64,000 nt of DNA from Candidatus Cloacimonadota bacterium (lineage in GTDB: Bacteria > Cloacimonadota > Cloacimonadia > Cloacimonadales > TCS61), in contig JAUXIJ010000004.1 in assembly GCA_030621085.1 (NCBI GenBank), forward strand, positions 8,830 to 72,829. Reading direction: 5' to 3'. Shown here piece after piece: positions 2,371 to 42,806 of the stretch. A model generated the notes under the pieces. It searched no databases and was not told the origin of the DNA. It was given only the letters and a program-made list of their open reading frames with translations. Both the position numbers and the translations under genes were made by a program. Each line of letters opens with the position of its first letter. Position 1 is the first letter of the stretch.

Positions 2371-3405
2371 CTATTTAATTAAAATCATTTTATTAAGTTT
2401 GGAACAAAAGTTATCTGATTTAATTCGATAAAAATAAACACCTGAGCAGAATTTTTCCGCATTCCAAATAACTAACGACTGTAATGAATTAATTGTTAAT
2501 TGCTCCACTTTTTGTCCCTTTATATTATAAATCTCAATAAAAGGGTTTTCGATATCAACGAGTAATTCATACTTGATAGTTGTTGATGGATTAAAAGGAT
2601 TGGGAAAGTTTGACAATGAAATCAGATTATTTTTAATAAAGTTAGTTTCTATAGAATTTGTTTCATTAGAAAAAAACAAATAAAGCGTTGGTTTTATTAC
2701 ATCGTAAGGATGTCCGCTTGAAGTCATAAATCCCACATTATCATAAAGATCATCCCAGTCGGTATCAATGCCATCGAAGTCTATTCTGTATTGGGTTTTA
2801 TCTCTGCTTAATTCATAATCTTGGATAACACTGGAAGTAACATCGAGATAGCGATAACCAACTTCACCACTTTCAGTCATTACTCCTATATTATGCTGAT
2901 ATGTGTAAGGATTGCCTGTATCTCCCTTTCCCCAGTCTCCCACATCCAATTCGCTGCCGTAATCTATGTGGCTTACAATACACCGGATTGTATCACCTCC
3001 GGGAACATCCCAAACCGGAAAATCCTGGGGATTGGTCTGATAAAATCCACTATTCCCTGTGCTGTAATGCTGATAGAGACGGACATAAACACTATCTACC
3101 TGGTAACCTTCCGGAATTTCCGGCAAGAAGAACGAAATGTAAGATCGACTGTATGAATTATTATCAGAATTAAGGGGAGGCGCTATTCCATTATCCCCAA
3201 TATCACCAGCGAACATATCATACATCCAATTATCTATAAAAAAAAACTGCCCTGATTGGCTAAAGCAAATTTGTCCATCCAGCAGCGGATCTGAGTAAAC
3301 GGAATCAATGATGGTGTCGGCAGAGAGAAAGGAAAAAGGTGAAAGGAGAAAGGTAAAAGAAAAAATTAAAATAACATGTTTCAATTTCATAGCTACCTCC
3401 TTCAA
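2371..3405 (-). CDS. Secreted T9SS-cargo protein, array paralog P1. The passenger domain resembles a DNRLRE/CBM96-like beta-sandwich by motif order only.
   Basis: Signal peptide, then ADTIIDSVYS. Family motifs are SYISFFLPEIPEGY..DSVYVRLYQ, GGDTIRCIVSHIDYG, GYRYLDVT and TQYRI. The C-terminal NFPNPFNPSTTI...IYNIKGQK...GVYFYRI...MILIK is a T9SS sorting-domain signature. RBS GGAGGTAGCTATG. Confidence 0.85.
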   Translation of the reverse strand: MKEVAMKLKHVILIFSFTFLLSPFSFLSADTIIDSVYSDPLLDGQICFSQSGQFFFIDNWMYDMFAGDIGDNGIAPPLNSDNNSYSRSYISFFLPEIPEGYQVDSVYVRLYQHYSTGNSGFYQTNPQDFPVWDVPGGDTIRCIVSHIDYGSELDVGDWGKGDTGNPYTYQHNIGVMTESGEVGYRYLDVTSSVIQDYELSRDKTQYRIDFDGIDTDWDDLYDNVGFMTSSGHPYDVIKPTLYLFFSNETNSIETNFIKNNLISLSNFPNPFNPSTTIKYELLVDIENPFIEIYNIKGQKVEQLTINSLQSLVIWNAEKFCSGVYFYRIKSDNFCSKLNKMILIK

Positions 3406-3473
3406 TATCTCAGAAGTTTTAATTTCATTTTGAATAGACCACTTAAACGTTTCTATTATGTATTTTTAAAGAG

Positions 3474-3773
3474 TCAAGAAAAAATTATATAAAGATTTAC
3501 ATCTTCAGGAAAATCACAGGTATAAATATTCTGAAAAAAATCTCTGTCTGTAAAAGTAAATCTTCTTTTTAATTCAGTAATTTGATACTGAATCGCCAAT
3601 TCATTAAACCATTCCTGTTCTGTTTCGATGATCCCGTCTTCACGGATGGTAATTGTACTAAATTCATTCGTAACCTTGAACACTAATGTTCCGGGCACAT
3701 AAGATTCATCTGCATTTGCTAATAATAGTGCAAATGCGTATAAAATGATTAAAGCTAAAATTGTTCTTTTCAT
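3474..3773 (-). CDS. Propeptide-only duplicate of the S8 peptidase 5' end (signal peptide plus I9-like propeptide, 99 aa). It is either a stand-alone inhibitor/chaperone-like ORF or a gene fragment.
   Basis: About 230 nt (roughly 3497-3718) are nearly identical to 2085-2305 inside the 1-2358 peptidase gene. The ORF keeps its own RBS (GGAGGAAAAGATG) and signal peptide, but ends just after ...CDFPEDV, before any catalytic domain. Confidence 0.5.
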   Translation of the reverse strand: MKRTILALIILYAFALLLANADESYVPGTLVFKVTNEFSTITIREDGIIETEQEWFNELAIQYQITELKRRFTFTDRDFFQNIYTCDFPEDVNLYIIFS

Positions 3774-3784
3774 CTTTTCCTCCT

Positions 3785-4795
3785 TTAATGAATTATAACA
3801 ATTTTTTTAATAACTGCCTGTTTACCATCAGAAGCTCTCATGAAGTAAATACCTGATGGTAGATTTTGGGTACTGAATTCAATTTCTTCTGTACATTTAA
3901 TATTACCATTGAAGATAGATCTTAATTTTTGTCCTTTAATATTGAAAATTCCAAGATTTATAAAGCATTCTTTTTTTATTGAGAGCAAGATCTTAACTGA
4001 ATTGGAAATTGGATTTGGAAAAATCTGATAAGTAAAATTTGAGTTCACTACAATACAATGATCATCTGTTGTGGTATCTTCATAGAAAGTGAAAAATAGT
4101 TGTGGTCGATGATAAGTAACCCATGAATTTGAAGTTTTGAAACCCACATTATCATAAAGATCATCCCAGTCCGTATCGATGCCATCAAAGGCAATTCTGT
4201 ATTGGGTTTTGTCTCTATTTATTTCATAATCCTGCAATACGCTGGAAGTTAAGTTTAGATAGCGGTAACCATCTTCGCCACTTTCAGTCATTACTCCTAT
4301 ATTATGCTGATATGTATTAGGATTACCTATATCTCCATTTTCCCAGTCTCCCACATCCAATTCGTTGCCGTAATCTATATGGCTTACAATACACCGGATT
4401 GTATCACCTCCGGTTACATCCCACACCGGGAAATCCTGGGGATCGGTCTGATAAAATCCACTATTCCCTGTGCTGTAATTTTGATAGAGACGGACATAAA
4501 CACTATCTACCTCGTAACCTTCCGGAATTTCCGGCAAGAAGAACGAAATGTAAGATCGGCTGTAGGAATTATTGTCAGAATTAAGGGGTGGCGCTATTCC
4601 ATTATCTCCAATATCTCCTGCTCCCATATCATACATCCAATTATTTACAAAAAATCCCTGATTCTGTTGGCTATATCCGATATAACCATCCAAAACTGGT
4701 GTAGCATAAACGCTGTCGATGATTGTGTCTGCTCTAACCGGATGAGATAAAATTATAAACAACAGAATTGTTAGAATCAGGCATAGGTTTTTCAT
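3785..4795 (-). CDS. Secreted T9SS-cargo protein, array paralog P2. It is closest to P1 but carries a different C-terminal sorting-domain subtype.
   Basis: The track ORF 3785-4831 begins MSGQIRRDKEGMMK. The first 12 codons translate the conserved leader. The likely start is the second ATG (4793-4795), 5 nt after GGAGG. The passenger is highly similar to P1 (GDIGDNGIAPPLNSDNNSYSRSYISFFLPEIPEGY). The CTD is IFPNPISNSV...IFNIKGQK...GIYFMRA...KKIVIIH. Confidence 0.85.
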   Translation of the reverse strand: MKNLCLILTILLFIILSHPVRADTIIDSVYATPVLDGYIGYSQQNQGFFVNNWMYDMGAGDIGDNGIAPPLNSDNNSYSRSYISFFLPEIPEGYEVDSVYVRLYQNYSTGNSGFYQTDPQDFPVWDVTGGDTIRCIVSHIDYGNELDVGDWENGDIGNPNTYQHNIGVMTESGEDGYRYLNLTSSVLQDYEINRDKTQYRIAFDGIDTDWDDLYDNVGFKTSNSWVTYHRPQLFFTFYEDTTTDDHCIVVNSNFTYQIFPNPISNSVKILLSIKKECFINLGIFNIKGQKLRSIFNGNIKCTEEIEFSTQNLPSGIYFMRASDGKQAVIKKIVIIH

Positions 4796-4800
4796 CATTC

Positions 4801-4858
4801 CCTCCTTGTCACGGCGTATCTGACCACTCACGAGTGGTACAGAGAAGTCGGACTATTT
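4801..4858 (-). promoter_or_regulatory. Conserved intercistronic leader element, copy 1 (P3 to P2 junction): previous stop codon, hairpin, then RBS.
   Basis: Minus-strand sequence is TAGTCCGACTTCTCTGTACCACTCGTGAGTGGTCAGATACGCCGTGACAAGGAGG. The inverted repeat ACCACTC/GAGTGGT lies at 4824-4839. The core is identical in the four copies. Confidence 0.55.
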
Positions 4859-5806
4859 TAACAGCAGGCATTTACCTGTTGCAGTTTGGATTCCGACTGT
4901 AATCTCATAAAGATAAATACCGGAAGACAAACCATCTGCATTCCAGATAATTGAATTATGAGCACTATTTAAGGAAAAGGTTTCAATTATTTGCCCTTTG
5001 ATATTATAGATCACAATCTCTGCATCCTTTGTGTCTCTACAAGAAATTTTAAATGAGATAGTAGTTTCCGGGTTGAAAGGATTAGGGTAATTGGATAAAT
5101 AAATCTGATTATCCGGTAATTGCTCATTTGAAATATTCGAATTTTCTTCAATTATATAAATTACATAAGGTTTTAAATCCATTGATGTATCCGATGTTTT
5201 AAAGAAAAGTGCATCTACATACTGATCTTCATCCATATCTATTGCAAGTCTCAAACGATACTGGGTAAATGGTCTTGCATTTTCAATGTCATCCAGAACA
5301 AATTCAGTAACTTCTATAGAACGCCATCCTACTTCCGGTGTATCACTGATAGTTCCTATAAAATGGAGCGGTGTCAGGAAAAAATCAGTTTCATCCAGAG
5401 TGTATCCATAATCAAGATGCTCGATAAAGCAGGGTGGCTCAAAAGTACCTGAAGCCATATCAAAGATAGGATAGTTCCCTACGATTCCATTACCTTCAGA
5501 CGCAAACTGATAAATATATATATATGATGAAGTCAGAGAATAACCTTCTGGTATTACAGGTAATTCAAACGCAAAAAAAGATCTGTTGAAGAAATAATCC
5601 CATAATATATTACTATAATAATCTCCCACAATTCCATAAGGTGAATTTGCTCCAATTCCGAAATAGCCTAATCCCGGGCTATGTGCGATAGTACCATCTA
5701 AATATGCTATGCTGTAAACAGTATCTATTATAGTTTCCTGCGCTGTTAATAATGAGAAATGAAAAATCATAATAATAAGTATAAGAAAAAAAAGTTTTAA
5801 TTTCAT
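4853..5806 (-). CDS. Secreted T9SS-cargo protein, array paralog P3 (the most divergent member).
   Basis: Signal peptide, then QETIIDTVYS. Motifs are NRSFFAFELPVIPEGY, FIEHLDYG, GWRSIEVTEFVL and TQYRLR. The CTD is NYPNPFNPETTISF...IYNIKGQ...GIYLYEI...TATGKCLLLK. Confidence 0.85.
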   Translation of the reverse strand: MKLKLFFLILIIMIFHFSLLTAQETIIDTVYSIAYLDGTIAHSPGLGYFGIGANSPYGIVGDYYSNILWDYFFNRSFFAFELPVIPEGYSLTSSYIYIYQFASEGNGIVGNYPIFDMASGTFEPPCFIEHLDYGYTLDETDFFLTPLHFIGTISDTPEVGWRSIEVTEFVLDDIENARPFTQYRLRLAIDMDEDQYVDALFFKTSDTSMDLKPYVIYIIEENSNISNEQLPDNQIYLSNYPNPFNPETTISFKISCRDTKDAEIVIYNIKGQIIETFSLNSAHNSIIWNADGLSSGIYLYEITVGIQTATGKCLLLK

Positions 5807-6012
5807 ACCTACCTCCAGAAAAAATAGTTTTAGTAAAAATTAAGAATATCTCAAGCTGTTTCAGTTTAGTTTTTCAAATCCAAGTTTCTAAATTCTATCA
5901 ATTATCCGATGACAATAGTTTTCTATATAATTTCTATCTCACACAATAAGCAAAATTTACTAATGGAAGTATTTGTCAAATTATTTTTCATTTTCATATT
6001 AATTATTGTGTT
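5807..6012 (-). repeat. Upstream (promoter-region-like) repeat, copy A, immediately 5' of P3.
   Basis: About 170 nt align with 10177-10350 (same orientation) and with 34590-34760 (inverted). An example is the shared string GATAAGAATTTAGAAAC(C/T)TGGATTTG(A/G)AAAACTAAACTGAAA. It ends directly at the P3 RBS. Confidence 0.7.
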
Positions 6013-6999
6013 TTATTTCAACAGCAGGCATTTGCCTGTTGCTGTTTGAATTCCGGTTTTTATCTTGTAAAAATATATGCCGGAACTTTGGTTTGATGCA
6101 TCCCAGATTACAGAGTATCTTCCTGCTGTCTGGATTTCATTTACGATAGTTTCGATCAATTGACCTTCTACATTGAATATTTGAAGCATAACATTTGAAT
6201 TCTGCGAAAGCTCATATTGTATTTTTGTTTCAGGATTAAAAGGGTTAGGGAAATTCTTACAGTTTAAATTATTAGTTTGAACCAAAACATTTTCTATTAC
6301 TAAACCATTAGATAAATAGAAAAATAGATTTGGCCAGTAGCTTTCTATCCAAGAATCTGCTGTAGAAAATGCTACAAAATCAGGATGATCATCCAAATCC
6401 GTATCTATTTGAAAAGAGATGCGATATTGTGTTAAAGTTCTTTCCTGTTGATAATCGTATAATATGCAATCTGTAACATCGAGATAACGGTATCCGTCTT
6501 CACCACTCTCTGTTACCGTTCCTGCATTGTGTGTGAAAGTATAAGGATTTCCGACATCTCCTTTTTCCCAGTCTCCAGGGTCTAATTCAAAACCATAATC
6601 GATATGATTTAAAATACATTTTATCGTATCTCCACCTGCTACGTTCCATACAGGGAAATACTGTGTAGGATATCCCCCAAGGGCATCGAACTGGTAGAGT
6701 CTCATCGATACACTATCAATCTCATATCCAGTAATTATTTCAGGTAATTCAAAAGATATAAATGCTCTTTTTGTCGAATTTGAGGGTGGAGAAACAGGTA
6801 TTGAACTATCTCCCAAATCTCCTGCTTTCATAGCGTATGTCCAAGCATTTAATGACCAAAACTGTCCGGTTGTAGTATAACACATATTACCATCTAATTC
6901 AGGTACGGAATAAACGCTGTCTATTATGGTATCTGCTCTAATCGGACGAGATAAAAAGAACAAAAGTAAAACCGATGCTATTAAGAGTATCTTTTTCAT
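6013..6999 (-). CDS. Secreted T9SS-cargo protein, array paralog P4.
   Basis: The track ORF 6013-7035 starts in the leader (MSGQIRRDKVEMMKK). The likely start is ATG 6997-6999. Family motifs are present. The CTD is NFPNPFNPETKI...IFNVEGQ...GIYFYKI...TATGKCLLLK. Confidence 0.85.
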   Translation of the reverse strand: MKKILLIASVLLLFFLSRPIRADTIIDSVYSVPELDGNMCYTTTGQFWSLNAWTYAMKAGDLGDSSIPVSPPSNSTKRAFISFELPEIITGYEIDSVSMRLYQFDALGGYPTQYFPVWNVAGGDTIKCILNHIDYGFELDPGDWEKGDVGNPYTFTHNAGTVTESGEDGYRYLDVTDCILYDYQQERTLTQYRISFQIDTDLDDHPDFVAFSTADSWIESYWPNLFFYLSNGLVIENVLVQTNNLNCKNFPNPFNPETKIQYELSQNSNVMLQIFNVEGQLIETIVNEIQTAGRYSVIWDASNQSSGIYFYKIKTGIQTATGKCLLLK

Positions 7000-7004
7000 C
7001 ATTT

Positions 7005-7062
7005 CCACCTTGTCACGGCGTATCTGACCACTCACGAGTGGTACAGCAAAGCCGGACTATTT
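7005..7062 (-). promoter_or_regulatory. Conserved intercistronic leader element, copy 2 (P5 to P4 junction).
   Basis: Same core as copy 1: TGTACCACTCGTGAGTGGTCAGATACGCCGTGACAAGGTGG. It begins at the P5 stop codon. Confidence 0.55.
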
Positions 7063-8064
7063 CATTATGATGATTTTTTTTGTAAAAACTTGATTATCTG
7101 TTTTTGCTTTTAGAAAATAAATTCCATTTGACAATTCTTTTGTATCAAAAAGAATTTCATTTTCTCCTCTTTCGATATTTCCTGTAAATACAGTTTGAAC
7201 TAACTGTCCTTTGATATTATATATTTTGATATTATATATTTTGACATTAATACTATACGTTTTTTTTGAGTATAACATAATTCTACAATTTTTTGATGTG
7301 GGGTTTGGATAAACTTGGAAATTAAAATCTGAGTAATTTAATAAATTATTGTTAACACCTAAATTATCTGATAAATAAAAAAATAATTGTGGTTTATGAG
7401 CATCAATTCCGGAATCTCCAGACTTAAATGCAACTAAATCCCAACAACTATCATTATCACTATCTATTTGAAAAGAGATACGGTATTGTGTTAATGATCT
7501 TTCCTGTTGATAATCGTATAATATGCAATCTGTAACATCGATATAACGGTATCCGTCTTCACTACTCTCTATTACAGTTCCTGCATTGTGCGTGAAAGTA
7601 TAGGGATTTCCGACATTTCCTTTTTCCCAATCTTCTTCGTCTAATTCATCACCATAATCAATGTGGCTTAGAATACATTTTATAGTATCTCCCCCTGGAA
7701 TATTCCATTCAGGAAAACCAAAACCTCCCAATTCTGATCCGTTACATATTGCTCTATTCTGGTATAAACGAATATACACACTGTCTAAATCACAATTTCC
7801 TGGTATTTGAGGTAATTCAAAGGATACAAATGATCGATTACATGAATTTGGTGGGGGTCCGGGTATTAACGGAACTCCAGTATCTCCTGATTGCATTTCA
7901 TAGGTAAAGTTATTCAGTAATTCCGGTTCTCCTTCCGGATTAAAAAGAATTGTTCCATCCAGTTCCGGCACGGAATAAACGCTGTCTATTATTGTGTCTG
8001 CAATAATTGGATGAGATAAAATTATAAAAAACAGAATTGAAAATATTAGGTAGAGTTTTTTCAT
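7057..8064 (-). CDS. Secreted T9SS-cargo protein, array paralog P5.
   Basis: The track ORF 7057-8100 starts in the leader. The likely start is ATG 8062-8064 (AAGGAG plus 6 nt). The N-terminal third is near-identical to P7 and the middle third to P4. The CTD is VYPNPTSKN...IYNIKIYNIKGQ...GIYFLKA...KKIIIMK. Confidence 0.85.
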   Translation of the reverse strand: MKKLYLIFSILFFIILSHPIIADTIIDSVYSVPELDGTILFNPEGEPELLNNFTYEMQSGDTGVPLIPGPPPNSCNRSFVSFELPQIPGNCDLDSVYIRLYQNRAICNGSELGGFGFPEWNIPGGDTIKCILSHIDYGDELDEEDWEKGNVGNPYTFTHNAGTVIESSEDGYRYIDVTDCILYDYQQERSLTQYRISFQIDSDNDSCWDLVAFKSGDSGIDAHKPQLFFYLSDNLGVNNNLLNYSDFNFQVYPNPTSKNCRIMLYSKKTYSINVKIYNIKIYNIKGQLVQTVFTGNIERGENEILFDTKELSNGIYFLKAKTDNQVFTKKIIIMK

Positions 8065-8070
8065 ATTAAT

Positions 8071-8127
8071 CTCCTTGTCACGGCGTATCTGACCACTCAC
8101 GAGTGGTACAGAGAAGCCGGACTATTT
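8071..8127 (-). promoter_or_regulatory. Conserved intercistronic leader element, copy 3 (P6 to P5 junction).
   Basis: Same core sequence and hairpin as copy 1. It begins at the P6 stop codon (8122-8124). Confidence 0.55.
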
Positions 8128-9114
8128 CAACAACAGGCATTTGCCTGTTGCTGTTTGAGTTCCGATATTTATACTGTAAAAATAAATCCCGGAACTCATA
8201 TCAGATGCATTCCAGATTACAGAGTATGTTCCTACTGTCTGGATTTCATTTAAGATAGTTTCAATCAATTGCCCTTTTACATTATATATTTGAATTAAAA
8301 TATACTCATCTTGTTCTAAAAAGTATTCAAAGGTTGTTTCAGGATTAAAAGGATTTGGAAAAATTCTACAATTCATACTATTTTTATTTTCTAAAACATT
8401 TCCTGTTCCCACACCATTAGATAAATAAAAAAATAGTTTTGGTATAGCATAATCAAATGTGCCATTTCCTGTTATAAACCCTACCTTATCCCAGAGAGAA
8501 TCCCCATCTGTATTTACTTCAAAAGATATACGATATTGGGTTAGTATTCTTCCTAAATCATAATCCTGCAATACACAATCGGTTACATCGAGGTAACGAT
8601 AGCCATCTTCACCGCTTTCCGTTATTGTTCCAACATTATGAGTATAAGTATAAGGATTACCAATACTACCTTTTTCCCAGTCTCCAAAATCAAGTTGAAA
8701 TCCGTAGTCAATGTGGCTCATAATGCATTTTATAGTATCCCCACCAGGAATATTCCACTCGGGAAAATCAAGACCGGTTACCCCATTATAATTACCACAA
8801 CTGGTATGTTGATATAATCGAACATATACACTATCTATCTGATAGCTCTCAGGGTACTCAGGTAATTCAAAAGATAGAAATGATCTTGTTGTAGAATTAA
8901 TTGGTTGAGCTGGAATCCAAGGTTCACCTGTATCTCCTATGATCATAGAATATGTCCAGTTATTCAGTGAATAAGGTAATCCTTCAGGTGTAAAACACAT
9001 ATCTCCATCCAATTCAGGAACAGCGTATACGCTATCGATTATTATGTCTGCTCTAATTGGATGAAATAAAATTATAAACAACAGAATTGTTAGAATCAGG
9101 CAAAGGTTTTTCAT
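8122..9114 (-). CDS. Secreted T9SS-cargo protein, array paralog P6.
   Basis: The track ORF 8122-9150 starts in the leader. The likely start is ATG 9112-9114. Its signal peptide is almost identical to that of P2. The middle third is close to P7 and the CTD is close to P4 (…TATGKCLLLK). Confidence 0.85.
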   Translation of the reverse strand: MKNLCLILTILLFIILFHPIRADIIIDSVYAVPELDGDMCFTPEGLPYSLNNWTYSMIIGDTGEPWIPAQPINSTTRSFLSFELPEYPESYQIDSVYVRLYQHTSCGNYNGVTGLDFPEWNIPGGDTIKCIMSHIDYGFQLDFGDWEKGSIGNPYTYTHNVGTITESGEDGYRYLDVTDCVLQDYDLGRILTQYRISFEVNTDGDSLWDKVGFITGNGTFDYAIPKLFFYLSNGVGTGNVLENKNSMNCRIFPNPFNPETTFEYFLEQDEYILIQIYNVKGQLIETILNEIQTVGTYSVIWNASDMSSGIYFYSINIGTQTATGKCLLLK

Positions 9115-9120
9115 CATTCC

Positions 9121-9177
9121 CTCCTTGTCACGGCGTATCTGACCACTCACGAGTGGTACAAAAAAGCCGGACTTTTA
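9121..9177 (-). promoter_or_regulatory. Conserved intercistronic leader element, copy 4 (P7 to P6 junction).
   Basis: Same core and hairpin as copy 1. It begins at the P7 stop codon (9175-9177). Confidence 0.55.
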
Positions 9178-10164
9178 ATGAATTATAGCAATTTTTTTCA
9201 TTACTTGTGTTTCTCCATCATAATTGAGTTTAAGAAAATAAATACCACTACTTAAACTCGCCATATTTACGAAAACTTTGTTTTTTCCTTGTTTACCAGG
9301 ACTACTGACTATATTTTTTACTTTTTGCCCTTTAATGTTATAAAGTTCAATATATATTGGCTTTTGAGTTAAAAGGTTAAAATAAATATTTGTAGAATTA
9401 TTTATTGGATTGGGAATAATTGTGACACCATTTTCTTTTGATACTTCGTCCTCAACACCTGTACCATCAGACAAATAGAAAAATAATTTTGGACGTTTAC
9501 TCTCATTATTAGCTTCAAAAGTTTTAATAGTAATCCCGTCCTTTAGAGAATCCCCATCTGTATTAACTTCAAAAGCTATGCGGTATTGCGTTAAAATTCG
9601 TCCCATATCATAATCTTGTAAAGCATATTCTGTCACATTCAGATAACGATAACCTTCTATACCACTTTCAGTTATTGTACCGATATTATGAGTAAAAGTA
9701 TCAGGATTTCCGATATCACCTTTTTCCCAATCTTCAAAATCAAGTTGAAAGCCGTAATCTATATGACTCATTATGCACTTTATTGTATCTCCTCCGGTAA
9801 TATTCCATTCGGGAAAACCAAAACCTCCCAATTCTGATCCGTTACAAAATGCTCTATGCTGGTATAAACGAATATACACACTGTCTAAATCATAGTTCTC
9901 CGGAATTTGAGGTAATTCAAAGGATACAAATGAGCGGTTACAAGAATTTGGTGGGGGACCGGGTACTAACGGAACTCCGGTATCTCCTGCTTGCATTTGA
10001 TAGGTAAAGTTATTCAGTAATTCCGGTTCTCCTTCCGGATTAAAAAGAATTGTTCCATCCAGTTCCGGCACGGAATAAACGCTGTCGATGATTGTGTCTG
10101 AAAATAAGAATGTAAAATGGAAAATGAAGAATGTAAAAAGTAAAATGGTTAGTATTAATTTCAT
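9175..10164 (-). CDS. Secreted T9SS-cargo protein, array paralog P7 (first gene of the array).
   Basis: Signal peptide, then SDTIIDSVYSVPELDG. Family motifs are present. The CTD is IIPNPINNSTNI...LYNIKGQK...GIYFLKL...KKIAIIH. RBS GGAGGTAGCTATG. Confidence 0.85.
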   Translation of the reverse strand: MKLILTILLFTFFIFHFTFLFSDTIIDSVYSVPELDGTILFNPEGEPELLNNFTYQMQAGDTGVPLVPGPPPNSCNRSFVSFELPQIPENYDLDSVYIRLYQHRAFCNGSELGGFGFPEWNITGGDTIKCIMSHIDYGFQLDFEDWEKGDIGNPDTFTHNIGTITESGIEGYRYLNVTEYALQDYDMGRILTQYRIAFEVNTDGDSLKDGITIKTFEANNESKRPKLFFYLSDGTGVEDEVSKENGVTIIPNPINNSTNIYFNLLTQKPIYIELYNIKGQKVKNIVSSPGKQGKNKVFVNMASLSSGIYFLKLNYDGETQVMKKIAIIH

Positions 10165-10571
10165 AGCTACCTCCTAAAACATTATTATTGCAACAGTTTT
10201 GAAGATCACGTTTTTCAGTTTAGTTTTCCAAATCCAGGTTTCTAAATTCTTATCAATTTTACGATGATACCAGTTTCTCTATAATTCATTTAGCAAAAAA
10301 CCAAATCCTTGTTTACTAAAATTAAAAAATTATGTCAATTACTTTTTTAAAATAAATCCTGTTTAGCACAAATGACAGAACAATGTTCTGTCACTACAAT
10401 ATTTTTTTTAGCAGTACGTATTATACTGATGCGTCAGAAACCTTGCGATTCAATCTACTCCGATAAATCGGAGAACCTGCTGAAGACAGAATGATGTTTT
10501 GTTACTACATTGAACCATTGAAAAGGTCAAGCAAGAAGAATGTTCCCATTAGAGACCATTTTCAAGGTTTT
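10165..10571 (-). repeat. Upstream repeat, copy B (longest copy), between the EEP-gene remnant and P7.
   Basis: Read on the minus strand, it matches 34474-34760 (plus strand) from the stop codon onward. Shared strings are AAAACCTTGAAAA(C/T)GGTCTCT, the palindrome GACAGAACATTGTTCTGTC, AATTGACATA and GATAAGAATTT(A/G)GAAACCTGGATTTG. It carries an extra ~95-nt internal insertion or duplication at about 10395-10490. Confidence 0.7.
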
Positions 10572-10989
10572 TTATTCAAGAACCAATTTCAATACCACAG
10601 GTCGGTGGTCGGTGATATATTTGTACCTGGCACCATTTCCGCCTTCCATAAATTTATCGATAGTAATTGTTTTTATATCTGAACCCTTTTTTTCAAATTC
10701 ATCAAACAGCTCGTTGGAAATTAGAATATGATCGAGATGACTGCGATATTTCCAATATGGATAGCTCCAGTTGGCTGTGCTGTCCGCTGCAATGAACCAG
10801 TCTGCAAAATAGTAGTTCTGTTTATCATAAACATATTGATACCATAATGATTTTGCAAAGACTATTTTTTGTCTTCGCTTGTTCTCGAAAACATGATTAC
10901 AATGTAAACATTTATACCGTTGTTTGCTATTCCATTTACTATTTTTTTGTATGATAAGATTTGCATTTGGGACACTGTTTATTACTCAT
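10572..10989 (-). pseudogene. Chimeric, frameshifted pseudogene. A CxxC...CxxC zinc-ribbon N-terminus (of the type found on transposases) is joined to the 3' third of an EEP-family gene.
   Basis: My own translation: ATG at 10987-10989 (RBS GGAG) gives MSNKQCPKCKSYHTKK, then TAG at 10939-10941 right after an A7 run (10942-10948). Shifting one base gives ...NSKWNSKQRYKCLHCNHVFENKRRQKIVFAKSLWYQYVYDKQNYYFADWFIAADSTANWSYPYWKYRSHLDHILISNELFDEF...ITDHRPVVLKLVLE*. From DKQNYYFADW onward this is near-identical to the C-terminus of the 33550-34473 protein. Confidence 0.6.
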
Positions 10990-11230
10990 TTTTATTCTCC
11001 TAAATAAAAATACGTACTTAAATACTTAACATATTTATATTTAACACCATTTTTAGCAACAAACTTTTGTCCATTACGCCAAAGAAAAACAGAAAAAATG
11101 TGTCAACCATATTTAGGACTGGACAAATTGATTCCCCTTCTTTGTTTGAGAGAAGGGGTAAGGGGATGAGTTAAACCCCCACCAATTCAGCGGGGGTTCG
11201 GTTTTTTAATTTCTAACAAACTATTAATTA

Positions 11231-12505
11231 TCAGCTTTTTTTCATTTCACCAAAGTTCAGAATTAAATTCAGAAGGATACCGACTATAGCAGCCAGACCC
11301 AATCCGCTTAGTTGAAAATTACCAACAGCAAATTTAGCTCCACCTAATCCCAGAACCAGCATTGCAGCACTTATCATTAAAATCTTAGGATCAGAAAAAT
11401 TAACTTTGTGGTCTACCATGTTTTTGATACCGATAGATGAGATCATACCGAAAAGCAGAACGGAAATACCGCCAATAACAGGTCCGGGAATAGTAGAGAT
11501 GATGGAGGTAAATTTGGGGATAAAAGAAAGCAAGATGGCAAAAACAGCTGCAATCCTCATGATGACAGGATTATAAACACCAGTTAGTGCAACAGCACCT
11601 GTATTTTCGCTGTAAGTTGTGTTTGCCGGACCACCAATAAGGGCAGAAAGAGTGGTAGCCAGTCCATCCCCGATTAAGGTTCTGTGAATACCAGGTTTTT
11701 TTATAAAATCATTTCCTGTTACATTTCCAATAGCTAATACATCCCCGAAGTGTTCTACAATAGTTACAATTGCTATTGGAACAATGATAGAAAGTGAACG
11801 TGTAGAAAAAACAGGTAAAGAAAATTTGGGAAGACCAAACCAAGCAGCTTCTTCTATTGGTGTAAAATTAACGATACCCAGGATCATTGCGAAGATATAT
11901 CCAAAAATGAGTGCTAAAAGAACAGGCAGCATAGAGATGAATTTCTTGCCGACCTTTGCAAAGTATATCTTCACAAATACTGCTACAGTAAAAGTAAAGA
12001 GTGCTACTCCCCAACATCCATTCGTTCCGATTATGTCCACTATATGTGGAGCAAAAGTACCATTAGAATTTTGAATGGCAACCGGTGCCAAAATCAAACC
12101 GATAAGAACAATCATAGGTCCTGTAACGTGGGGAGGAAGAATCTTGTGGATTATATCAGATCCCACATATTTGAAAATTATAGCTACGATTATGTACATT
12201 ATCCCTGCAACAGCAATTCCTCCTAATGCTTCTGGTAAAGAACCACCCTGAGCTGTTGCTACAGCAATGATACCCGGGATAAAAGCGAAAGATGAACCCA
12301 GGAAAACGGGGACCTGAAATTTAGTTACAATATGAAATAAAAGTGTTCCAATACCTGCCGCAAAAAGCGTTACTCCCACATCCAGTCCCGTGATAAGAGG
12401 AACAAGAATGGTTGCTCCGAACATAACAAAAGTGTGTTGCAAACCCATTACAATGTTTTTGCCATTAAGATCTTTCATAGCATCTCCTTTTCTTTTTTTC
12501 ATCAA
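11231..12505 (-). CDS. uraA: Uracil/xanthine permease, NCS2 family.
   Basis: LQHTFVMFGATILVPLITG, GIGTLLFH, FLGSSFAF, EHFGD and NTTYSENTG align along the full length with what I recall of E. coli UraA. The true start may be an internal Met. Confidence 0.85.
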   Translation of the reverse strand: MMKKRKGDAMKDLNGKNIVMGLQHTFVMFGATILVPLITGLDVGVTLFAAGIGTLLFHIVTKFQVPVFLGSSFAFIPGIIAVATAQGGSLPEALGGIAVAGIMYIIVAIIFKYVGSDIIHKILPPHVTGPMIVLIGLILAPVAIQNSNGTFAPHIVDIIGTNGCWGVALFTFTVAVFVKIYFAKVGKKFISMLPVLLALIFGYIFAMILGIVNFTPIEEAAWFGLPKFSLPVFSTRSLSIIVPIAIVTIVEHFGDVLAIGNVTGNDFIKKPGIHRTLIGDGLATTLSALIGGPANTTYSENTGAVALTGVYNPVIMRIAAVFAILLSFIPKFTSIISTIPGPVIGGISVLLFGMISSIGIKNMVDHKVNFSDPKILMISAAMLVLGLGGAKFAVGNFQLSGLGLAAIVGILLNLILNFGEMKKS

Positions 12506-12655
12506 TTTTTCAATTATTGATTATTGATTTTTTAAATTATTATATGTATGTCAATTGGAATTTCTAAAGAGTAATATTAATGATGGTTCATAGCTCACTT
12601 TCTTCTTCTTGACATCTACATTAACAAGGAAATTATTCATCCAGAGATATGTAAA

Positions 12656-13348
12656 ATGAATAAAAGAAAAACAAAAATTACTCGTAATTACCTGATGCAT
12701 CCGGCAGGATCGGTGTTGATCGAAACCGGTAATACAAAAGTTATTTGTACGGCAATGATAGAAAAGGGAGTACCCTCGTTCCTGAAAGAAGTTGACCCAC
12801 CCCAGGGTTGGCTCACAGCCGAATACAGCATGCTTCCCGGTGCTCCCAATCAACGGTTCAAGCGAGAACGCGGAAAATCGAATAGCCGCTCAACAGAGAT
12901 ACAAAGACTTATCGGGCGTGTATTGCGAACAACAGTGGATATGACAAAATTCCCCGGGTTTACTATACATGTGGATTGTGATGTTATCCAGGCGGATGGC
13001 GGCACCAGGACAGCTGCCATTACCGGAGCTTGTGTAGCCATCAAAGATGCATTTACTAATATGATATCCGAAGGCTCGATAACTGAAGATCCCTTCAAAG
13101 AATGGATAGCTGCTGTGAGTGTAGGCATGGTGAATAGTGAAGCGGTGGTCGATCTTTGTTACGAAGAAGATTTCCAGGCAGATGTAGATATGAATATCGT
13201 GATGACCGAAAGTGGAAAATATGTGGAAATCCAGAGAACGGGTGAAACTAAGTCCTTTTCCGATGAAGAGCTGAGAGAAATGCTGAAGGAAGCAAAGAAA
13301 GCTATCAGACAGCTCATTAAGTTTCAGAAACGATTGTATGAAAAGTGA
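12656..13348 (+). CDS. rph: Ribonuclease PH.
   Basis: TRNYLMHPAGSVLIETGNTKVICTA, GWLTAEYSMLP, STEIQRLIGR, DCDVIQADGGTRTAAITGA and DMNIVMTE. Confidence 0.95.
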   Translation: MNKRKTKITRNYLMHPAGSVLIETGNTKVICTAMIEKGVPSFLKEVDPPQGWLTAEYSMLPGAPNQRFKRERGKSNSRSTEIQRLIGRVLRTTVDMTKFPGFTIHVDCDVIQADGGTRTAAITGACVAIKDAFTNMISEGSITEDPFKEWIAAVSVGMVNSEAVVDLCYEEDFQADVDMNIVMTESGKYVEIQRTGETKSFSDEELREMLKEAKKAIRQLIKFQKRLYEK

Positions 13349-13416
13349 CAACTTTTACTTGACATCAACTACTGCTCGAACGAGGAAGTATTCCACTTAA
13401 ATTTATAGGAAATGAT

Positions 13417-14187
13417 ATGTTTAGGAAAAAAAGGAAAAAGATTAAAAGAAAAAAAAATATTATTCAGGAATATGTGGAAGCTATCCTGTTTGCTTTTGTG
13501 GTGGCAATGCTCATCCGCAATTATACGATACAGACCTTTAAAATTCCTTCTTCATCTATGGAGTCTACCCTTCTTATCGGTGATTTTCTTATAGGAAATA
13601 AACTGAAGTATTTCTTTGATGATCCCGAGCAGGAAGATATCGTTATTTTCCAATATCCGGCTGATCCGGAAGAACCGGAACCACGTGAAAACTTTGAAAA
13701 GATACTTGGCCCTATTTACTTAGATAAAACCCGATGGATACCGATCTGGCATCAGAAGAAGAATGTGGTGAAACGTGTGATCGGGATGCCGGGAGATAAA
13801 GTGGAACTGATCGATAAAGAAGTGTATGTTAACGATAAATTGTTCCATCAAGGATACGAACAATATATTGATTCGCGCATTATTCCGCGGGGATCCGGCA
13901 GGATCTACTGGGATGATGAATTCATGGGAAGCAGAGACAATTTCGGTCCCGTCATTGTTCCCGAAGGACAGTATTTTGTTATGGGAGATAATCGTGATGT
14001 GAGCGGTGACAGCCGCTACTGGGGATTTCTACCTCGAGTAGATATTACTGGTACTCCAGCAGTGATCTATATGTCCATCGGTAAACCACCCTACAAAGAT
14101 ATTCGAGATTACATATATAAACAGCAGAGAAGGTTCAAAGGAAAATCCGAGATCAGATGGAAGAGATTTTTCAAACTGATCCACTGA
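13417..14187 (+). CDS. lepB: Signal peptidase I.
   Basis: IPSSSMESTLLIGDFL (catalytic Ser box), KRVIGMPGD (Lys box) and GDNRDVSGDSRYWGFLP. Confidence 0.9.
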   Translation: MFRKKRKKIKRKKNIIQEYVEAILFAFVVAMLIRNYTIQTFKIPSSSMESTLLIGDFLIGNKLKYFFDDPEQEDIVIFQYPADPEEPEPRENFEKILGPIYLDKTRWIPIWHQKKNVVKRVIGMPGDKVELIDKEVYVNDKLFHQGYEQYIDSRIIPRGSGRIYWDDEFMGSRDNFGPVIVPEGQYFVMGDNRDVSGDSRYWGFLPRVDITGTPAVIYMSIGKPPYKDIRDYIYKQQRRFKGKSEIRWKRFFKLIH

Positions 14188-15272
14188 TTGAACATATTTA
14201 TATTCATGTTCCTTTCTGCTTAAAGAAATGTGATTATTGCTCATTTTACTCGGAAATATTTTCTGAAGAAGTAAAAAATAAATATCTTACAAATCTAACA
14301 AAAGAAATAGAAGCTTACAAAGCTCATTTCAAAATACAACCTCGAACGATATATTTCGGTGGCGGAACTCCATCTCTTTTGCTACCGGAAGAGATCGAAT
14401 CGATCTTACAAAGATTTAATACATCTAACACGATCGAAGCTACACTAGAGATCAATCCTGTTAGTATAACATGTGAATACGCAAATAAACTTAAACAGAC
14501 AAGTATTAATCGTATCAGCCTTGGAGCACAGTCATTTGTAGATGAAGAACTAAAATTGCTTGGTCGTCTGCATAACTCGAAGCAAATAATAAAAGCATAT
14601 GATCATCTTCGAGCAGCTGGTTTTACCAACATCTCGTTGGATCTGATCTATGGGCTTCCCCGGCAGAAAAAATCCGATCTGTTATTTTCTATAGAAAAAT
14701 CCATAGAACTTGATCCCGAGCATATTTCTACATATTGTTTAAGTTTAGATGAGGATGTTCCGTTATTCTCGCAAAAAGCTTTAATTCCTGATGATGAAAC
14801 CGTTTCTGAATTCTATTATCTGATTCGAAAGAAATTGATCTCGGCGGGTTTTGAGCAATATGAAATTTCCAACTTTGCTAGAAAAAGATTTGAATCGGAG
14901 CATAATTTGTGCTATTGGAAAGATAAATTTTATCTGGGACTGGGACCTGCTGCTGCTGGATATATTGATTTATTCAGATATACAAACCCAGCTGATATTA
15001 AGAAGTATTTTCAAATGGATCTTTTCTTGAACTGGAAAAAAATATCGGATGAGGACCATGAAAAGGAATTCATTTTTTTAGCGTTAAGAAAAACAAAAGG
15101 AATGAATTTGAAAGATTTTCAATTTAGTTTTAAAGAAAATTTTCTTTTAAAATATGAAAAAGAAATTGCAAAATATTTGGAAAATAAATATCTGGAAATT
15201 GCTGGAGATTTTATCAGATTAACTCCTAAATCTTATTTTATATCGAATGAGATTTTTACGGAGTTTATGTAA
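14157..15272 (+). CDS. hemW: Radical SAM heme chaperone HemW / HemN-like protein.
   Basis: IYIHVPFCLKKCDYCSFYS (CxxxCxxC), IYFGGGTPSLL and the C-terminal HemN_C-like region. It overlaps the lepB 3' end by 31 nt. Confidence 0.85.
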   Translation: MEEIFQTDPLIEHIYIHVPFCLKKCDYCSFYSEIFSEEVKNKYLTNLTKEIEAYKAHFKIQPRTIYFGGGTPSLLLPEEIESILQRFNTSNTIEATLEINPVSITCEYANKLKQTSINRISLGAQSFVDEELKLLGRLHNSKQIIKAYDHLRAAGFTNISLDLIYGLPRQKKSDLLFSIEKSIELDPEHISTYCLSLDEDVPLFSQKALIPDDETVSEFYYLIRKKLISAGFEQYEISNFARKRFESEHNLCYWKDKFYLGLGPAAAGYIDLFRYTNPADIKKYFQMDLFLNWKKISDEDHEKEFIFLALRKTKGMNLKDFQFSFKENFLLKYEKEIAKYLENKYLEIAGDFIRLTPKSYFISNEIFTEFM

Positions 15273-15437
15273 AAACCTTCGGAACGGTTAAAATCCTTCC
15301 TAATGGTTTTATAAGAGTTTCTTGTTCTCAAGTCGAACTTGAGAACACAATTGTATGGAAGTTTAACTTCCATCGAACAAAGATGATTCGTTCGCAAGTA
15401 CAACTTACGAACGAGATTATTTTAGCCTGGAGTAAAA

Positions 15438-16685
15438 ATGAAATATATCTTAATTATTATAATTCTTGCGGTTAGCTTTTCAGCGTGTACTGAAATTCTC
15501 ATTCCAATGGACCTTACACAATCAAACCACCTGAAAGCTTATGGGGTAGCTTTCTCTGCACTGAAAATGCAGATGATCGTGAAGTGGCTCCTAAATTACC
15601 GTGGCGGTTCCTGGATCATTCCGGATTCTCCAGAAATAGAAGGATTTTGCAACATTCGTGGAGTGAGCTACGAAAATATATCGGCTATTGAGATTGCTTC
15701 CATAACTTCAGAGATTGAAGCATCCAATATGGATATAGTAGTACTGGAAAAAGAACCGACCATTGCCATTTACACTCCTCCTAATAAACAGCCCTGGGAT
15801 GATGCGGTTACTTTGGCTCTTACTTATGCAGAAATCGAATATGAAACCGTCTGGGATGAGGAAGTACTTGCCGGAAAGCTGGATAAATATGACTGGTTGC
15901 ATCTGCATCATGAAGATTTTACAGGGCAATATGGCAAATTCTATTCTGGATTTCGTAATGCTCCCTGGTATCAGGAAGATGTACGTAATAATGAGGAACT
16001 TGCTGTCAAACTCGGTTTCAATAAAGTATGGAAATTAAAGCATGCTGTAGCAGAGAAGATACGGGAATATGTAAAAAACGGAGGATTCTTATTTGCCATG
16101 TGTGCCGCAACCGATACTTACGATATTGCTCTGGCAGCACGAAATGTGGATATCTGTGAACCGGTTTTTGATGGAGATGGTTTCGATCCAGATTACCAAA
16201 GCAAGTTGGATTTTTCACGCACTTTTGCCTTTGAGAATTTCGAATTGATCACCAATCCATTTGTGTATGAATTCTCCGGAATCGATGCCAGCGATTATGC
16301 TAAACTCCGCGGAGCAGAAGCCGATTATTTCACACTTTTCGATTTTTCCGCTAAATACGATCCCGTTCCTACAATGCTTACCCAATGTCACACCAGCATC
16401 ATCAATGGTTTTCTGGGGCAGACAACATCTTTTCATAAAAAATACGTTAAGAAAAGTGTGATCATTCTGGGAGAATCTCCACAGGTAGAGGAAGTGAAAT
16501 ACTTACATGGGAACTTTGGAAAAGGTACGTTTACGTTTTATGGTGGTCACGATCCGGAAGATTATCAGCACAGGATAGGTGATCCTGAAACTGTGTTAGA
16601 CCTTCATAAACAGTCACCAGGCTACAGACTTATATTGAATAATATTCTCTTTCCAGCAGCAGAGAAGAAAAAATTGAAAACATAA
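15438..16685 (+). CDS. Conserved hypothetical lipoprotein of unknown function.
   Basis: Lipobox ILAVSFSAC. It is a long, well-conserved-looking ORF (NHLKAYGVAF, WLLNYRGGSW, DWLHLHHEDFTGQYGKFY). I could not assign a catalytic family from the sequence alone. Confidence 0.6.
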   Translation: MKYILIIIILAVSFSACTEILIPMDLTQSNHLKAYGVAFSALKMQMIVKWLLNYRGGSWIIPDSPEIEGFCNIRGVSYENISAIEIASITSEIEASNMDIVVLEKEPTIAIYTPPNKQPWDDAVTLALTYAEIEYETVWDEEVLAGKLDKYDWLHLHHEDFTGQYGKFYSGFRNAPWYQEDVRNNEELAVKLGFNKVWKLKHAVAEKIREYVKNGGFLFAMCAATDTYDIALAARNVDICEPVFDGDGFDPDYQSKLDFSRTFAFENFELITNPFVYEFSGIDASDYAKLRGAEADYFTLFDFSAKYDPVPTMLTQCHTSIINGFLGQTTSFHKKYVKKSVIILGESPQVEEVKYLHGNFGKGTFTFYGGHDPEDYQHRIGDPETVLDLHKQSPGYRLILNNILFPAAEKKKLKT

Positions 16686-16727
16686 AACCTTGCGAACGGT
16701 TGAAGAATTTGTGGGTTAGCACCCACC

Positions 16728-17780
16728 CTACTTAATAAACACATCCTGCATGAAAACATTCTGCATGAAAAAGAGTGCTACATAAGCAATTATGGCAGAA
16801 GCAACGGGAGTTGCCACCCATCCTATACTGATCTTTCCCAGGATACGGAAATTCACATTCTTGCCGCCTTTAGCCAGGCTGATACCAATAATCGCACCGA
16901 CTACTGCCTGTGAGCTGGAAACAGGAACCAGAGGAAATGAAGGTAACCCGTGTGATATAAGAATATCTTTCAACCCTTGAGAAGCGAACAGGAATAATAC
17001 TGTAGAACTGGCCAGTACAACTACTAAAGCAGAAATTGGAGAAAGTTTGAAAATCCTGGAACCTACTGTCATCATCACCTTTCTGGAATATGTAAATATA
17101 CCGATAGCAATAGCTATTCCACCCAAAAGGAAGAGTTGCTGAACTCCACTGAAATTAAAAATACTTCCAAGATTCAAGTCTTTAAATGGAGATGACTGTA
17201 CAAAAACTCCCATTACATTAGCGATATTATTTGCACCAAGGCTGTACGATCCGAAAATTCCTGCCAGGATCAGACCAAAACGAGTTAGCGAATCCAATCG
17301 TATCAAGTGGATCTTCGAATTATCAAGAATAAATTTTATAATATGAAAAAATAGAAATGCGAAAAGGGCAGATAAAACTGGAGAAAAAACCCATGTCCCC
17401 ACGATCTTGGTGAGAGCAGAAATATCTGTATGAGTCCCAGAAAAAAAGTTCCAGCCAAGAATGGCTCCAACAATAGCTTGGGATGTTGAAACAGGCAATC
17501 CGGCTTTTGTCATCCACGTTACAGTAAAGGCAGCTGCAAGTGCAACAATAAATGCACCGGACATAGTATTGATAGCACCCAGTTTTCCAAGCGTATGAGA
17601 TGCACCGGCACCGCTTATAACTGCACCCAGAAGAACAAAAATACTGCAGATAATTGCGGCTGTATAGAAACGGACCATCTTGGTGCCAACAGCAGTTCCA
17701 AAGATGTTTGCAGCATCATTGGCACCAAGCGACCAACCCAGGAAAAGTCCGCTGGAAAGATAGAATAATATTTGTATCAT
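16728..17780 (-). CDS. Inorganic phosphate transporter, PiT (PHO4) family.
   Basis: GANDAANIFGTAVGT at the N-terminus, a second GANNIANVMG repeat, and about 10 hydrophobic segments. Confidence 0.9.
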   Translation of the reverse strand: MIQILFYLSSGLFLGWSLGANDAANIFGTAVGTKMVRFYTAAIICSIFVLLGAVISGAGASHTLGKLGAINTMSGAFIVALAAAFTVTWMTKAGLPVSTSQAIVGAILGWNFFSGTHTDISALTKIVGTWVFSPVLSALFAFLFFHIIKFILDNSKIHLIRLDSLTRFGLILAGIFGSYSLGANNIANVMGVFVQSSPFKDLNLGSIFNFSGVQQLFLLGGIAIAIGIFTYSRKVMMTVGSRIFKLSPISALVVVLASSTVLFLFASQGLKDILISHGLPSFPLVPVSSSQAVVGAIIGISLAKGGKNVNFRILGKISIGWVATPVASAIIAYVALFFMQNVFMQDVFIK

Positions 17781-17783
17781 TAA

Positions 17784-18434: not shown

Positions 18435-18566
18435 AATAACCTCCCTGAAATCATCAATAATCTTATGCTACGCACATGTAAAATTTAAAATTGAAGATTT
18501 ATAATAAGTCAAGCTAATTTTACAGTTAAGTCTGTTAGTTGTCCAGTTTCTGCATACAGTAAAATA

Positions 18567-31678: not shown

Positions 31679-31684
31679 TGTAGT

Positions 31685-31710
31685 GACAGAACATTGTTCT
31701 GTCTTTTGTT
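31685..31710 (+). terminator. Rho-independent terminator after the first EEP gene.
   Basis: GACAGAAC-ATT-GTTCTGTC followed by TTTTGTT. The same palindrome recurs after the other EEP copies, at about 34552-34568 (left arm degenerate) and about 10374-10392. Confidence 0.6.
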
Positions 31711-33477: not shown

Positions 33478-33549
33478 CCTTGTGAATGGTCATAGACCTT
33501 CGCAATGGTTATTGACATCAGCAATGATGTTGCTAGTTAATGATATTTA

Positions 33550-35518: not shown

Positions 35519-35527
35519 TTCAACCTC

Positions 35528-35617: not shown

Positions 35618-35642
35618 CGCTTGTGTTTTTTTCTATCTCTTC

Positions 35643-39155: not shown

Positions 39156-39209
39156 AATTTGAAACTAACCTCTTGTTTTTTTAGTCAATACAAAAATATT
39201 TAATACTAC

Positions 39210-41768: not shown

Positions 41769-41780
41769 CTATCCTCCGGT

Positions 41781-42806
<1,026 letters not shown>

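Follow-up and report, generated by a model that had tools for sequence, protein, structure and literature searches.

Inversions of bacterial chromosome segments arise by recombination between inverted copies of insertion sequences (ISs), of rrn operons or of duplicated genes such as tufA and tufB. In invertons the repeats measure tens of bp, the invertible segment is small, a dedicated invertase is present and both orientations coexist in the population. A passage in PMC9297083 names long repeats as major mediators of bacterial chromosome rearrangements. Here we analyzed a stretch of 64,000 nucleotides (the window; contig JAUXIJ010000004.1) from a metagenome-assembled genome (MAG) of a Candidatus Cloacimonadota bacterium, in which two long inverted repeats, copies A and B, lie at the ends of a segment that, judged by gene order, is inverted relative to related genomes. 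Each copy holds the 3' end of an endonuclease/exonuclease/phosphatase (EEP) gene followed by an intergenic module, the distal part of which carries a promoter-like box and a conserved leader (Table 1). Loci of related genomes are designated L005, L010 and so on.

Two inverted copies of a gene end and its spacer

A global alignment of the reverse complement of 10165-10830 against 34215-34762 showed that copies A (10830-10176) and B (34215-34759) are identical at 480 of 543 aligned positions (88.4%), with a single 111-nt gap, and by blastn the first 344 nt matched with E=5e-130. The inverted duplication that a first-pass annotation of the window had proposed was thereby borne out. Self-comparison of the whole window by repeat detection recovered collinear inverted arms over A 10213-10828 and B 34217-34719 (74-94% complementarity), a similarity that is not of the low-complexity kind, and a 38-nt core pattern had three matches in the window and none in shuffled sequence. 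The homology begins where that annotation had placed it, within the EEP coding sequence, at DKQNYYF (A 10826, B 34219), and it includes the motifs listed there, namely AACCTTGAAAAYGGT (10555-10569, 34475-34489), the TTGACA box (10331-10340, 34591-34600) and the GAATTT.GAAACCTGGATTTG block. Copy B is made up of the final 84 codons of EEP2, the second EEP gene of the window, and 287 nt of spacer. The shorter third copy reported at 5807-6012 (copy C) was likewise recovered, with 92% identity between 5818-5896 and B 34682-34760 and an nhmmer profile match at 5847-5986.

The array genes next to copies A and C (2371-10164, minus strand) encode proteins of ~330 aa with the C-terminal sorting domain of the type IX secretion system (T9SS). 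Both the 10-kb and the 34-kb copies had been described as running straight into the ribosome-binding site (RBS) of an array gene. This holds for the 10-kb copy, at 10162-10174, but not for the 34-kb copy: the homology between B and C extends to AAAACTATTTTTT, and B then halts at the stop codon of a convergent gene of the uracil-DNA glycosylase (UDG) family (34751-35518, minus). The 5.8-kb copy C also enters the RBS and ATG of an array gene (5804-5816).

EEP2 (33550-34473) is intact, with a full match to the EEP domain (PF03372, Pfam E=5.7e-16), and is the last gene of an LptD-HAD-EEP1-S8 peptidase-EEP2 cluster that is syntenic in ~20 related MAG contigs; the EEP protein has its relatives in Candidatus Cloacimonadota MAGs. 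The EEP piece of copy A is a fragment, not a gene. Its frame is still open over 84 codons (DKQNYYF...VLKLVLE and stop), and upstream it continues in frame, by a direct fusion at 10828/10829, into ~55 codons of the zinc-ribbon N-terminus of an IS1/IS1595-type transposase (10829-10989). Copy A thus joins the remnant of a gene to that of an IS. The transposase piece carries a frameshift in an A7 run, and after its correction the IS1/IS1595 N-terminal zinc-binding domain was matched by NF050000 (E=1.7e-8, 34.8 bits, cut-off 28). The upstream end of the IS remnant is 10990-11125. An examination of its intactness found only the N-terminal zinc-binding domain, with no catalytic domain and no definable ends; no second copy was found within the window, and its DNA had no match in a plasmid collection. 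The EEP fragment was left behind by an IS-associated truncation. In five independent short-read assemblies (L037-L041), contigs end at 10989-11162, a ~170-nt stretch close to the downstream end of the permease gene. Such breaks are expected where a multi-copy IS begins or ends, and they suggest that the IS has further copies elsewhere in the genome.

Gene order and the inverted segment

Synteny shows that the 10.8-34.2 kb segment, which the repeats bound, runs in the opposite direction to its counterpart in related genomes. In L046/L047, whose permease is 81-84% identical to that of the window, the order is rpsA, PhoU, PHO4, a 415-aa gene, HemN-like, RNase PH(-), an NYN-domain gene(-) without counterpart in the window, and permease(+). 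Past the permease come a lineage-specific AAA_14/DUF4143 gene, DprA(-), a 2-hydroxyacid dehydrogenase gene(-), Obg(-), T9SS genes and xseA. L048 shows HemN-like, RNase PH and permease followed directly by DprA and Obg. In all, the permease faces DprA in three related lineages. Compared with L046/L047 and L048, the window has its DprA...xseA block (39719-52370) in the same orientation, and its permease...rpsA block (11231-20183) is reversed and lies ~27 kb away. The close relatives L051/L052 (~90% identical) follow the window from 13440 down to 11126 and resume within 7 nt at window position 39623, presenting an empty site.

Un-inverting 10829-34216 gives the order permease(+), IS remnant, EEP fragment, spacer, UDG gene, restriction-modification gene, DUF559 and dprA, and it also makes LptD-HAD-EEP1-S8-EEP2-spacer-array co-directional, as in L005. 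Since the permease-facing-dprA order is restored, repeats A and B sit at the ends of a real inversion. The earlier suggestion had been that copies of this length could mediate inversion of the intervening DNA; the synteny of L046/L047, L048 and L051/L052 supports it more strongly than it was proposed. The breakpoint on the permease side comes from these same relatives, and that on the EEP2/array side is deduced from un-inverting and from L005. All the contigs recovered (three JGI samples and several Logan runs) have the present orientation or break inside the repeat, and no opposite orientation turned up when EEP2, S8, UDG, permease and the array head gene were looked up as exact proteins. Contigs with 99.96-100% identity to the window span or tile both junctions, each with its own copy-specific single-nucleotide polymorphisms (SNPs).

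The material absent from the empty site of L051/L052 is a low-GC island that sits between permease and dprA in the un-inverted order. It encodes a UDG-superfamily protein, a 1170-aa Eco57I-like type IIG restriction-modification protein and a DUF559 endonuclease-like protein, and the inserted material has a GC content of 30%, vs 36% for the window. L046 carries its AAA_14/DUF4143 gene at the site of the island; because a different insert occupies the same spot, the permease-dprA site looks like an insertion hot spot. After un-inverting, a pair of ~33-nt hairpins would flank the inserted material as direct repeats. The hairpin sequence CCCCTTCTCTC.AACA.AGAAGGGGA...AATT occurs once in the empty site of L051 and twice in the window. 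The pair could be an attachment-like duplication or a REP-like (repetitive extragenic palindromic) element.

Table 1. Positions of the repeats, of their component elements and of the neighbouring features in the window, and identity between copies A and B.
Feature	Position	Strand	Size or identity	Remarks
Copy A	10165-10828	minus		EEP 3' fragment and entire downstream intergenic module; heads T9SS cargo gene array
Copy B	34217-34760	+		3' end of intact EEP2 and intergenic module
Copy C (third, partial)	5807-6012	minus		promoter-like box and conserved leader only; upstream of array gene 4853-5806
Inverted arm	10560-10828/34217-34485		269 nt, 89%
Inverted arm	10485-10572/34472-34559		90%
Inverted arm	10344-10401/34532-34589		88%
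Inverted arm	10274-10346/34585-34657		74%
Inverted arm	10213-10277/34655-34719		94%
A/B identity, first 138 coding nt			97.8%
A/B identity, next 114-116 coding nt			81%
A/B identity, spacer			about 90%
A/B identity, leader core			92.5%
A/B identity, last 35 nt			66%
Inverted segment	10829-34216		23.4 kb	permease ... rpsA ... gcvP ... LptD-HAD-EEP1-S8-EEP2 5' part
EEP gene remnant in A	10573-10826	minus		final 84 codons and stop; 5' part and start codon missing
IS remnant	10829-11125	minus		absent from close relative L051
Post-stop stem-loop, A	10513-10569	minus		arms AACCTTGAAAATGGTC and GACCTTTTCAATGGTT; z=-1.9
Post-stop stem-loop, B	34475-34531	+		same element; z=-3.35
Terminator-type hairpin TGTAGTGACAGAACATTGTTCTGTC	10374-10398	minus	25-mer	-13 kcal/mol, z=-4.0
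Hybrid, degenerate hairpin motif in B	34535-34559	+		marks deletion junction
111-nt segment	10388-10498	minus	111 nt	present in A and in the L005 ortholog spacer, deleted in B
Promoter-like box, A	10312-10340	minus		TTGACA and downstream TTAGTAAA; prediction only
Promoter-like box, B	34591-34620			prediction only
Promoter-like box, C	5956-5981			prediction only
Leader core, A	10204-10267	minus		TCATCG.A.AATTGATAAGAATTT.GAAAC.TGGATTTG.AAAACTAAACTGAAA...
Leader core, B	34665-34731
Leader core, C	5847-5912
RBS GGAGG and ATG of first array gene (9175-10164)	10162-10174	minus		entered directly by copy A
Inserted low-GC island	34751-39647	minus		next to copy B; absent from empty site in L051/L052
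Hairpin CCCCTTCTCTCAAACAAAGAAGGGGA	11126-11158	minus		downstream of permease gene
Diverged second hairpin copy	39252-39287	+

Exchange between copies A and B

The identity between A and B is a mosaic along the repeat (Table 1), which indicates that the copies exchanged sequence after first diverging. RecA-type pairing needs roughly 25-30 nt of uninterrupted identity; A and B share an exact run of 49 nt, their longest, and the 138-nt tract. Over the whole coding part the dN/dS was 0.19, with a dS of about 0.33. We polarised the coding differences, 25 in total, against four orthologs. On the A branch six of nine changes were synonymous, and on the B branch 11 of 12 were non-synonymous, all of them in the distal part (Fisher p=0.016 vs the A branch). 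The last 116 coding nt of B are 79-83% identical to the orthologs and form the least ortholog-like part of EEP2 bar the N-terminal end. The equivalent 116 nt of A are 85-90% identical to the orthologs, like the rest of the gene. This pattern would fit a crossover close to the high-identity tract, by which the original EEP2 3' end moved to the IS side and the formerly detached copy became joined to EEP2.

Stem-loop, hairpins and the 111-nt segment of the spacer

Directly after the EEP stop codon, two motifs, AACCTTGAAAAYGGTC and GACCTTTTCAAYGGTT, pair as the arms of a stem-loop. A variant follows the stop codon of the S8 gene at 33476, and its changes preserve the pairing (GAAAA:UUUUC to GUGAA:UUCGC, read by eye). 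The motif AACCTTG..AAYGGT(C/T) was found at 16686-16700, 33476-33490, 34475-34490 and 10554-10569, starting 0-2 nt past the stops of gene 15438-16685, S8, EEP2 and the copy-A EEP2 fragment, respectively. At S8 and EEP2 a partner arm lies downstream with which it pairs, and the two sites differ by changes that retain the pairing.

Concerning the palindrome GACAGAACATTGTTCTGTC that the earlier description had given as common to both copies, it is complete in A (within 10374-10398) and also occurs after the EEP1 stop (31679-31703), but in B its left arm is degenerate. The site after EEP1 carries the identical 25-mer TGTAGTGACAGAACATTGTTCTGTC with the T-rich tail TTTTGTTC and was called by the terminator scan. 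An intrinsic terminator consists of a GC-containing hairpin and a T-run behind it; in A the hairpin is intact but its tail is ATTTGTGC, and in B the stem is degenerate. An extra stretch of ~95 nt in A had been read as an internal duplication. The extra segment is real, with a length of 111 nt, but it is not an internal duplication, as the spacer of L005 has the segment too. It is bounded by 25-nt direct repeats at 10485-10509 (degenerate) and 10374-10398, placed 111 nt apart. Since the orthologous L005 spacer keeps both 25-nt hairpin copies and the sequence between them, the extra segment of A is ancestral and B underwent a deletion between the direct repeats. A 51-nt piece inside this segment (10407-10457, minus) is 78-80% similar to the S8-EEP2 spacers of relatives (L005 9894-9944, L010 9866-9916 and L019 3645-3695). 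The spacers of the EEP gene cluster appear to be built from recurring sub-modules.

Promoter-like box and leader

The TTGACA of the promoter-like box did not vary among the five copies (A, B, C, L005 and L030). The candidate -10 is merely AT-rich (TAGTAAA), and its distance from TTGACA varies, being 2-4 nt shorter in C. A sigma-70 promoter is defined by -35 and -10 hexamers spaced 16-18 nt and by a mapped transcription start. A generic sigma-70 scan did not call the box; it found 60 sites, vs 53.6 expected from shuffles, and is uninformative because there was no enrichment over shuffles in this AT-rich DNA. Downstream of the box, a leader core of ~65 nt was almost invariant in the same five copies, with variable flanks. 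The RBS and ATG follow the leader in A, C and L030, and at these three sites, the last of them in another species, box and leader directly precede T9SS cargo genes of the array family. The gene upstream of the leader in L030 is unrelated, and EEP sequence is absent there. In L005 the module follows the EEP2 ortholog and precedes a 488-aa T9SS cargo gene. Because this position ahead of array and cargo genes is conserved, it is plausible that the distal part of the module acts as a promoter plus 5' leader. Copy B would then be an orphan promoter/leader that now points into the 3' end of the UDG gene.

A structured RNA or riboswitch was rejected as an identity for the leader. Rfam gave no match at the gathering score in the whole window, and in the A region at E<=1 it gave only a chance-level sar match (E=0.17), located on the permease terminator. 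Folding z-scores of the leader (+0.5, +1.9, -1.8 and +1.4) were no better than those of shuffled sequence, and RNAalifold returned a weak structure (-5.7 kcal/mol) with a positive, unfavourable covariation term. A leader peptide was also rejected, as the small open reading frames (ORFs) keep neither start codon nor frame across the copies (by eye). Since no RNA family, stable fold or conserved small ORF was found, we favour a recognition element that would be independent of a stable RNA fold and act at the level of DNA or linear RNA.

A metagenome scan with a 21-mer of the core hit two contigs only, both from the NIOZ-UU2 assembly, and an nhmmer profile of promoter and core found no copies in 56 fetched loci beyond the window species and the NIOZ-UU2 lineage. 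The leader appears to be lineage-specific, because the array heads of distant relatives carry another conserved upstream region. This other region measures ~250-300 nt (L053 3019-3640; L056 5071-5846). In L053-L055 it holds a called 70-aa ORF ending in a T9SS-tail-like sequence, and the homologous stretch of L056 has the same start and tail without a called gene. EEP2-array adjacency was also sought in relatives via array homologs, and the L053-L056 arrays have other upstream genes.

Origin of the inverted arrangement

We consider it probable that an older inverted segmental duplication, lying beside an IS and the island, was followed by homologous recombination that flipped 23.4 kb. The last 84 EEP2 codons and the downstream module would have been duplicated segmentally, with one copy originally heading the cargo gene array, downstream of EEP2. 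The second copy would have lain inverted ~23 kb away, adjoining the IS, in an insertion that separated the uracil/xanthine-family permease gene from dprA and comprised the IS, the EEP fragment, the UDG-family gene, the type IIG restriction-modification gene and DUF559. The two inverted copies would then recombine homologously and flip the segment, and the outcomes would be permease - IS remnant - EEP fragment - module - array at copy A, and EEP2 - module - convergent UDG gene at copy B, with its orphan promoter/leader. We infer that RecA-type recombination between A and B, rather than another process, produced the inversion; the crossover would have fallen near the proximal 138-nt high-identity tract, swapping the last ~38 codons of the gene.

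Several observations weigh against this explanation. The longest exact run shared by A and B is only 49 nt, and the coding comparison draws on no more than 25 differences, among which the six that fall in codons 72-80, surrounding the catalytic DHRP motif, are all synonymous. The derived changes in the spacer are balanced (21 in A and 18 in B), without an excess in B. Possibly both copies were for a long time parts of functional genes, for example if a second, complete EEP gene once existed and an IS-associated deletion truncated it afterwards. Neither a contig with the opposite orientation nor a relative with EEP2 directly before the array family of the window was found, and the left ancestral junction therefore rests on un-inverting. 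The promoter is a resemblance to the consensus only, missed by a sigma-70 scan that is itself uninformative in AT-rich DNA, and in more distant relatives no such leader was seen ahead of the array-family genes.

Copy A meets the IS remnant precisely where the homology ends, and this boundary lies in an insertion hot spot; both facts suit a single event, IS-mediated or by replication template switching, in which duplication and inversion occurred together (duplicative inversion) and no pre-existing repeats recombined. Such an event is nevertheless unlikely. The copies are ~12% divergent, with a dS of about 0.33 and a dN/dS of 0.19, and the purifying-selection pattern on the A branch is not expected of a fragment dead since the event. 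The mosaic identity (98% then 81%) speaks of later exchange, and in classical intramolecular replicative transposition it is the IS that is duplicated rather than host sequence. That near-identical 138-nt tract also suggests ongoing exchange, and the geometry would permit the repeats to be the arms of a reversible programmed switch (phase variation), since a flip exchanges the last ~38-84 EEP2 codons and alters the DNA upstream of the array, which would be joined to EEP2 or to the permease side. We regard such a switch as improbable to a high degree: no site-specific recombinase was found among 40 window ORFs scanned with Pfam, including all the neighbours of the repeats, every contig recovered from the JGI samples and Logan runs has the same orientation or is broken in the repeat, and the arms are long and diverged, unlike invertase sites. 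A bolder idea combines a recombination toggle, acting on the nuclease C-terminus and on the link between array and cluster, with a separate proposal that the ~65-nt leader is a new lineage-specific control element of T9SS cargo. If true, each flip would give a secreted nuclease a different C-terminal end and connect or disconnect the T9SS cargo array and the LptD-EEP-S8-EEP cluster, but we hold it to be very unlikely.

The three copies in the window and two more in a related species, with their variable left boundaries, could also recall a mobile promoter-carrying repeat resembling a miniature inverted-repeat transposable element (MITE) and spread by transposition to three sites. This is most improbable given that A and B carry 252 nt of EEP coding sequence, that the copy boundaries track gene structure from stop codon to RBS, and that the copies have neither terminal inverted repeats nor target duplications at their flanks; C and L030 are consistent with array units having been duplicated in tandem along with the DNA upstream of them. 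As several short-read contigs break inside the repeat, an assembly artefact of the MAG was considered as well, and it is scarcely credible. Three samples yielded contigs, one of 15.4 kb and two shorter, that run from the IS-remnant/permease side through the whole of copy A into the array, and two of these three start on the far side of the permease gene. Copy B is contained in a 25-kb contig and is also tiled by L045 and L033 with B-specific SNPs, and all these contigs are 99.96-100% identical to the window.

Arrays of T9SS genes and other signs of rearrangement

The array at 2371-10164 contains at least seven tandem paralogs, four of them at an exact period of 1050 nt, with weak CBM96/DNRLRE-like matches. 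The family is fast-evolving, its closest non-self homolog among 5.8 billion proteins being 68% identical. A second cluster of large T9SS cargo genes (42945-50892, minus) has internal repeats (families D5-D9), and its sorting-domain coding regions form inverted repeats of 75-78% with the tail of the S8 peptidase gene (33201-33323). These sorting-domain inverted repeats are further substrates for rearrangement. In L046 (1-1424), a C25 (gingipain-like) T9SS peptidase gene adjoins rpsA, and the only C25 (gingipain-like) peptidase gene found in the window (59635-63426, +) lies ~40 kb from rpsA. If the two are orthologous, this displacement would suggest another rearrangement in the region. No tRNA or tmRNA genes were found in the window.

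Comparison with known systems

The locus resembles repeat-mediated inversions in having inverted copies of several hundred bp at the ends of the flipped segment, and its mosaic identity points to crossover or gene conversion. It differs in that the repeat is a gene 3' end plus a regulatory spacer, neither an IS nor an rRNA operon, in that the event swaps a C-terminal coding end and strands a promoter/leader copy, and in that the copies are only ~88% identical. With invertons and invertible promoters (Bacteroides capsule promoters, fim, hin) it shares inverted repeats and the fact that orientation sets which genes lie downstream of a promoter; unlike in these systems, the arms measure 545-660 nt and the segment 23.4 kb, and no invertase was found among the 40 scanned ORFs and no second orientation among the recovered contigs. 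As in silent-cassette systems (pilE/pilS, inverted hsdS half-genes), an inverted promoterless 3' fragment can exchange with an expressed copy and alter its C-terminus, but here there is a single fragment and no sign of repeated switching or of selection for diversity. The zinc-ribbon transposase N-terminus (NF050000) at the duplication boundary, where assemblies break, recalls IS1/IS1595-type elements with adjacent deletions, whereas only ~55 frameshifted codons are left, without a catalytic domain or definable ends.

Inversion between long inverted repeats is a known type of rearrangement, and knowledge of its mechanism is unchanged by this case. The novelty is limited to the content of the repeat, a gene end and a regulatory spacer, and to the side effects, namely a swapped terminus, a chimeric remnant and an orphan promoter/leader. 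The case is of use for annotation and for reading the contig breaks of MAGs, and it brings to notice a conserved module upstream of the genes of a fast-evolving T9SS-secreted protein family. It provides an inversion resolved to its breakpoints in an uncultured phylum, for which a relative with the empty site serves as reference and in which a duplicated gene end beside an IS and a restriction-modification island accompanies a multi-gene inversion that re-wires an operon-like cluster.

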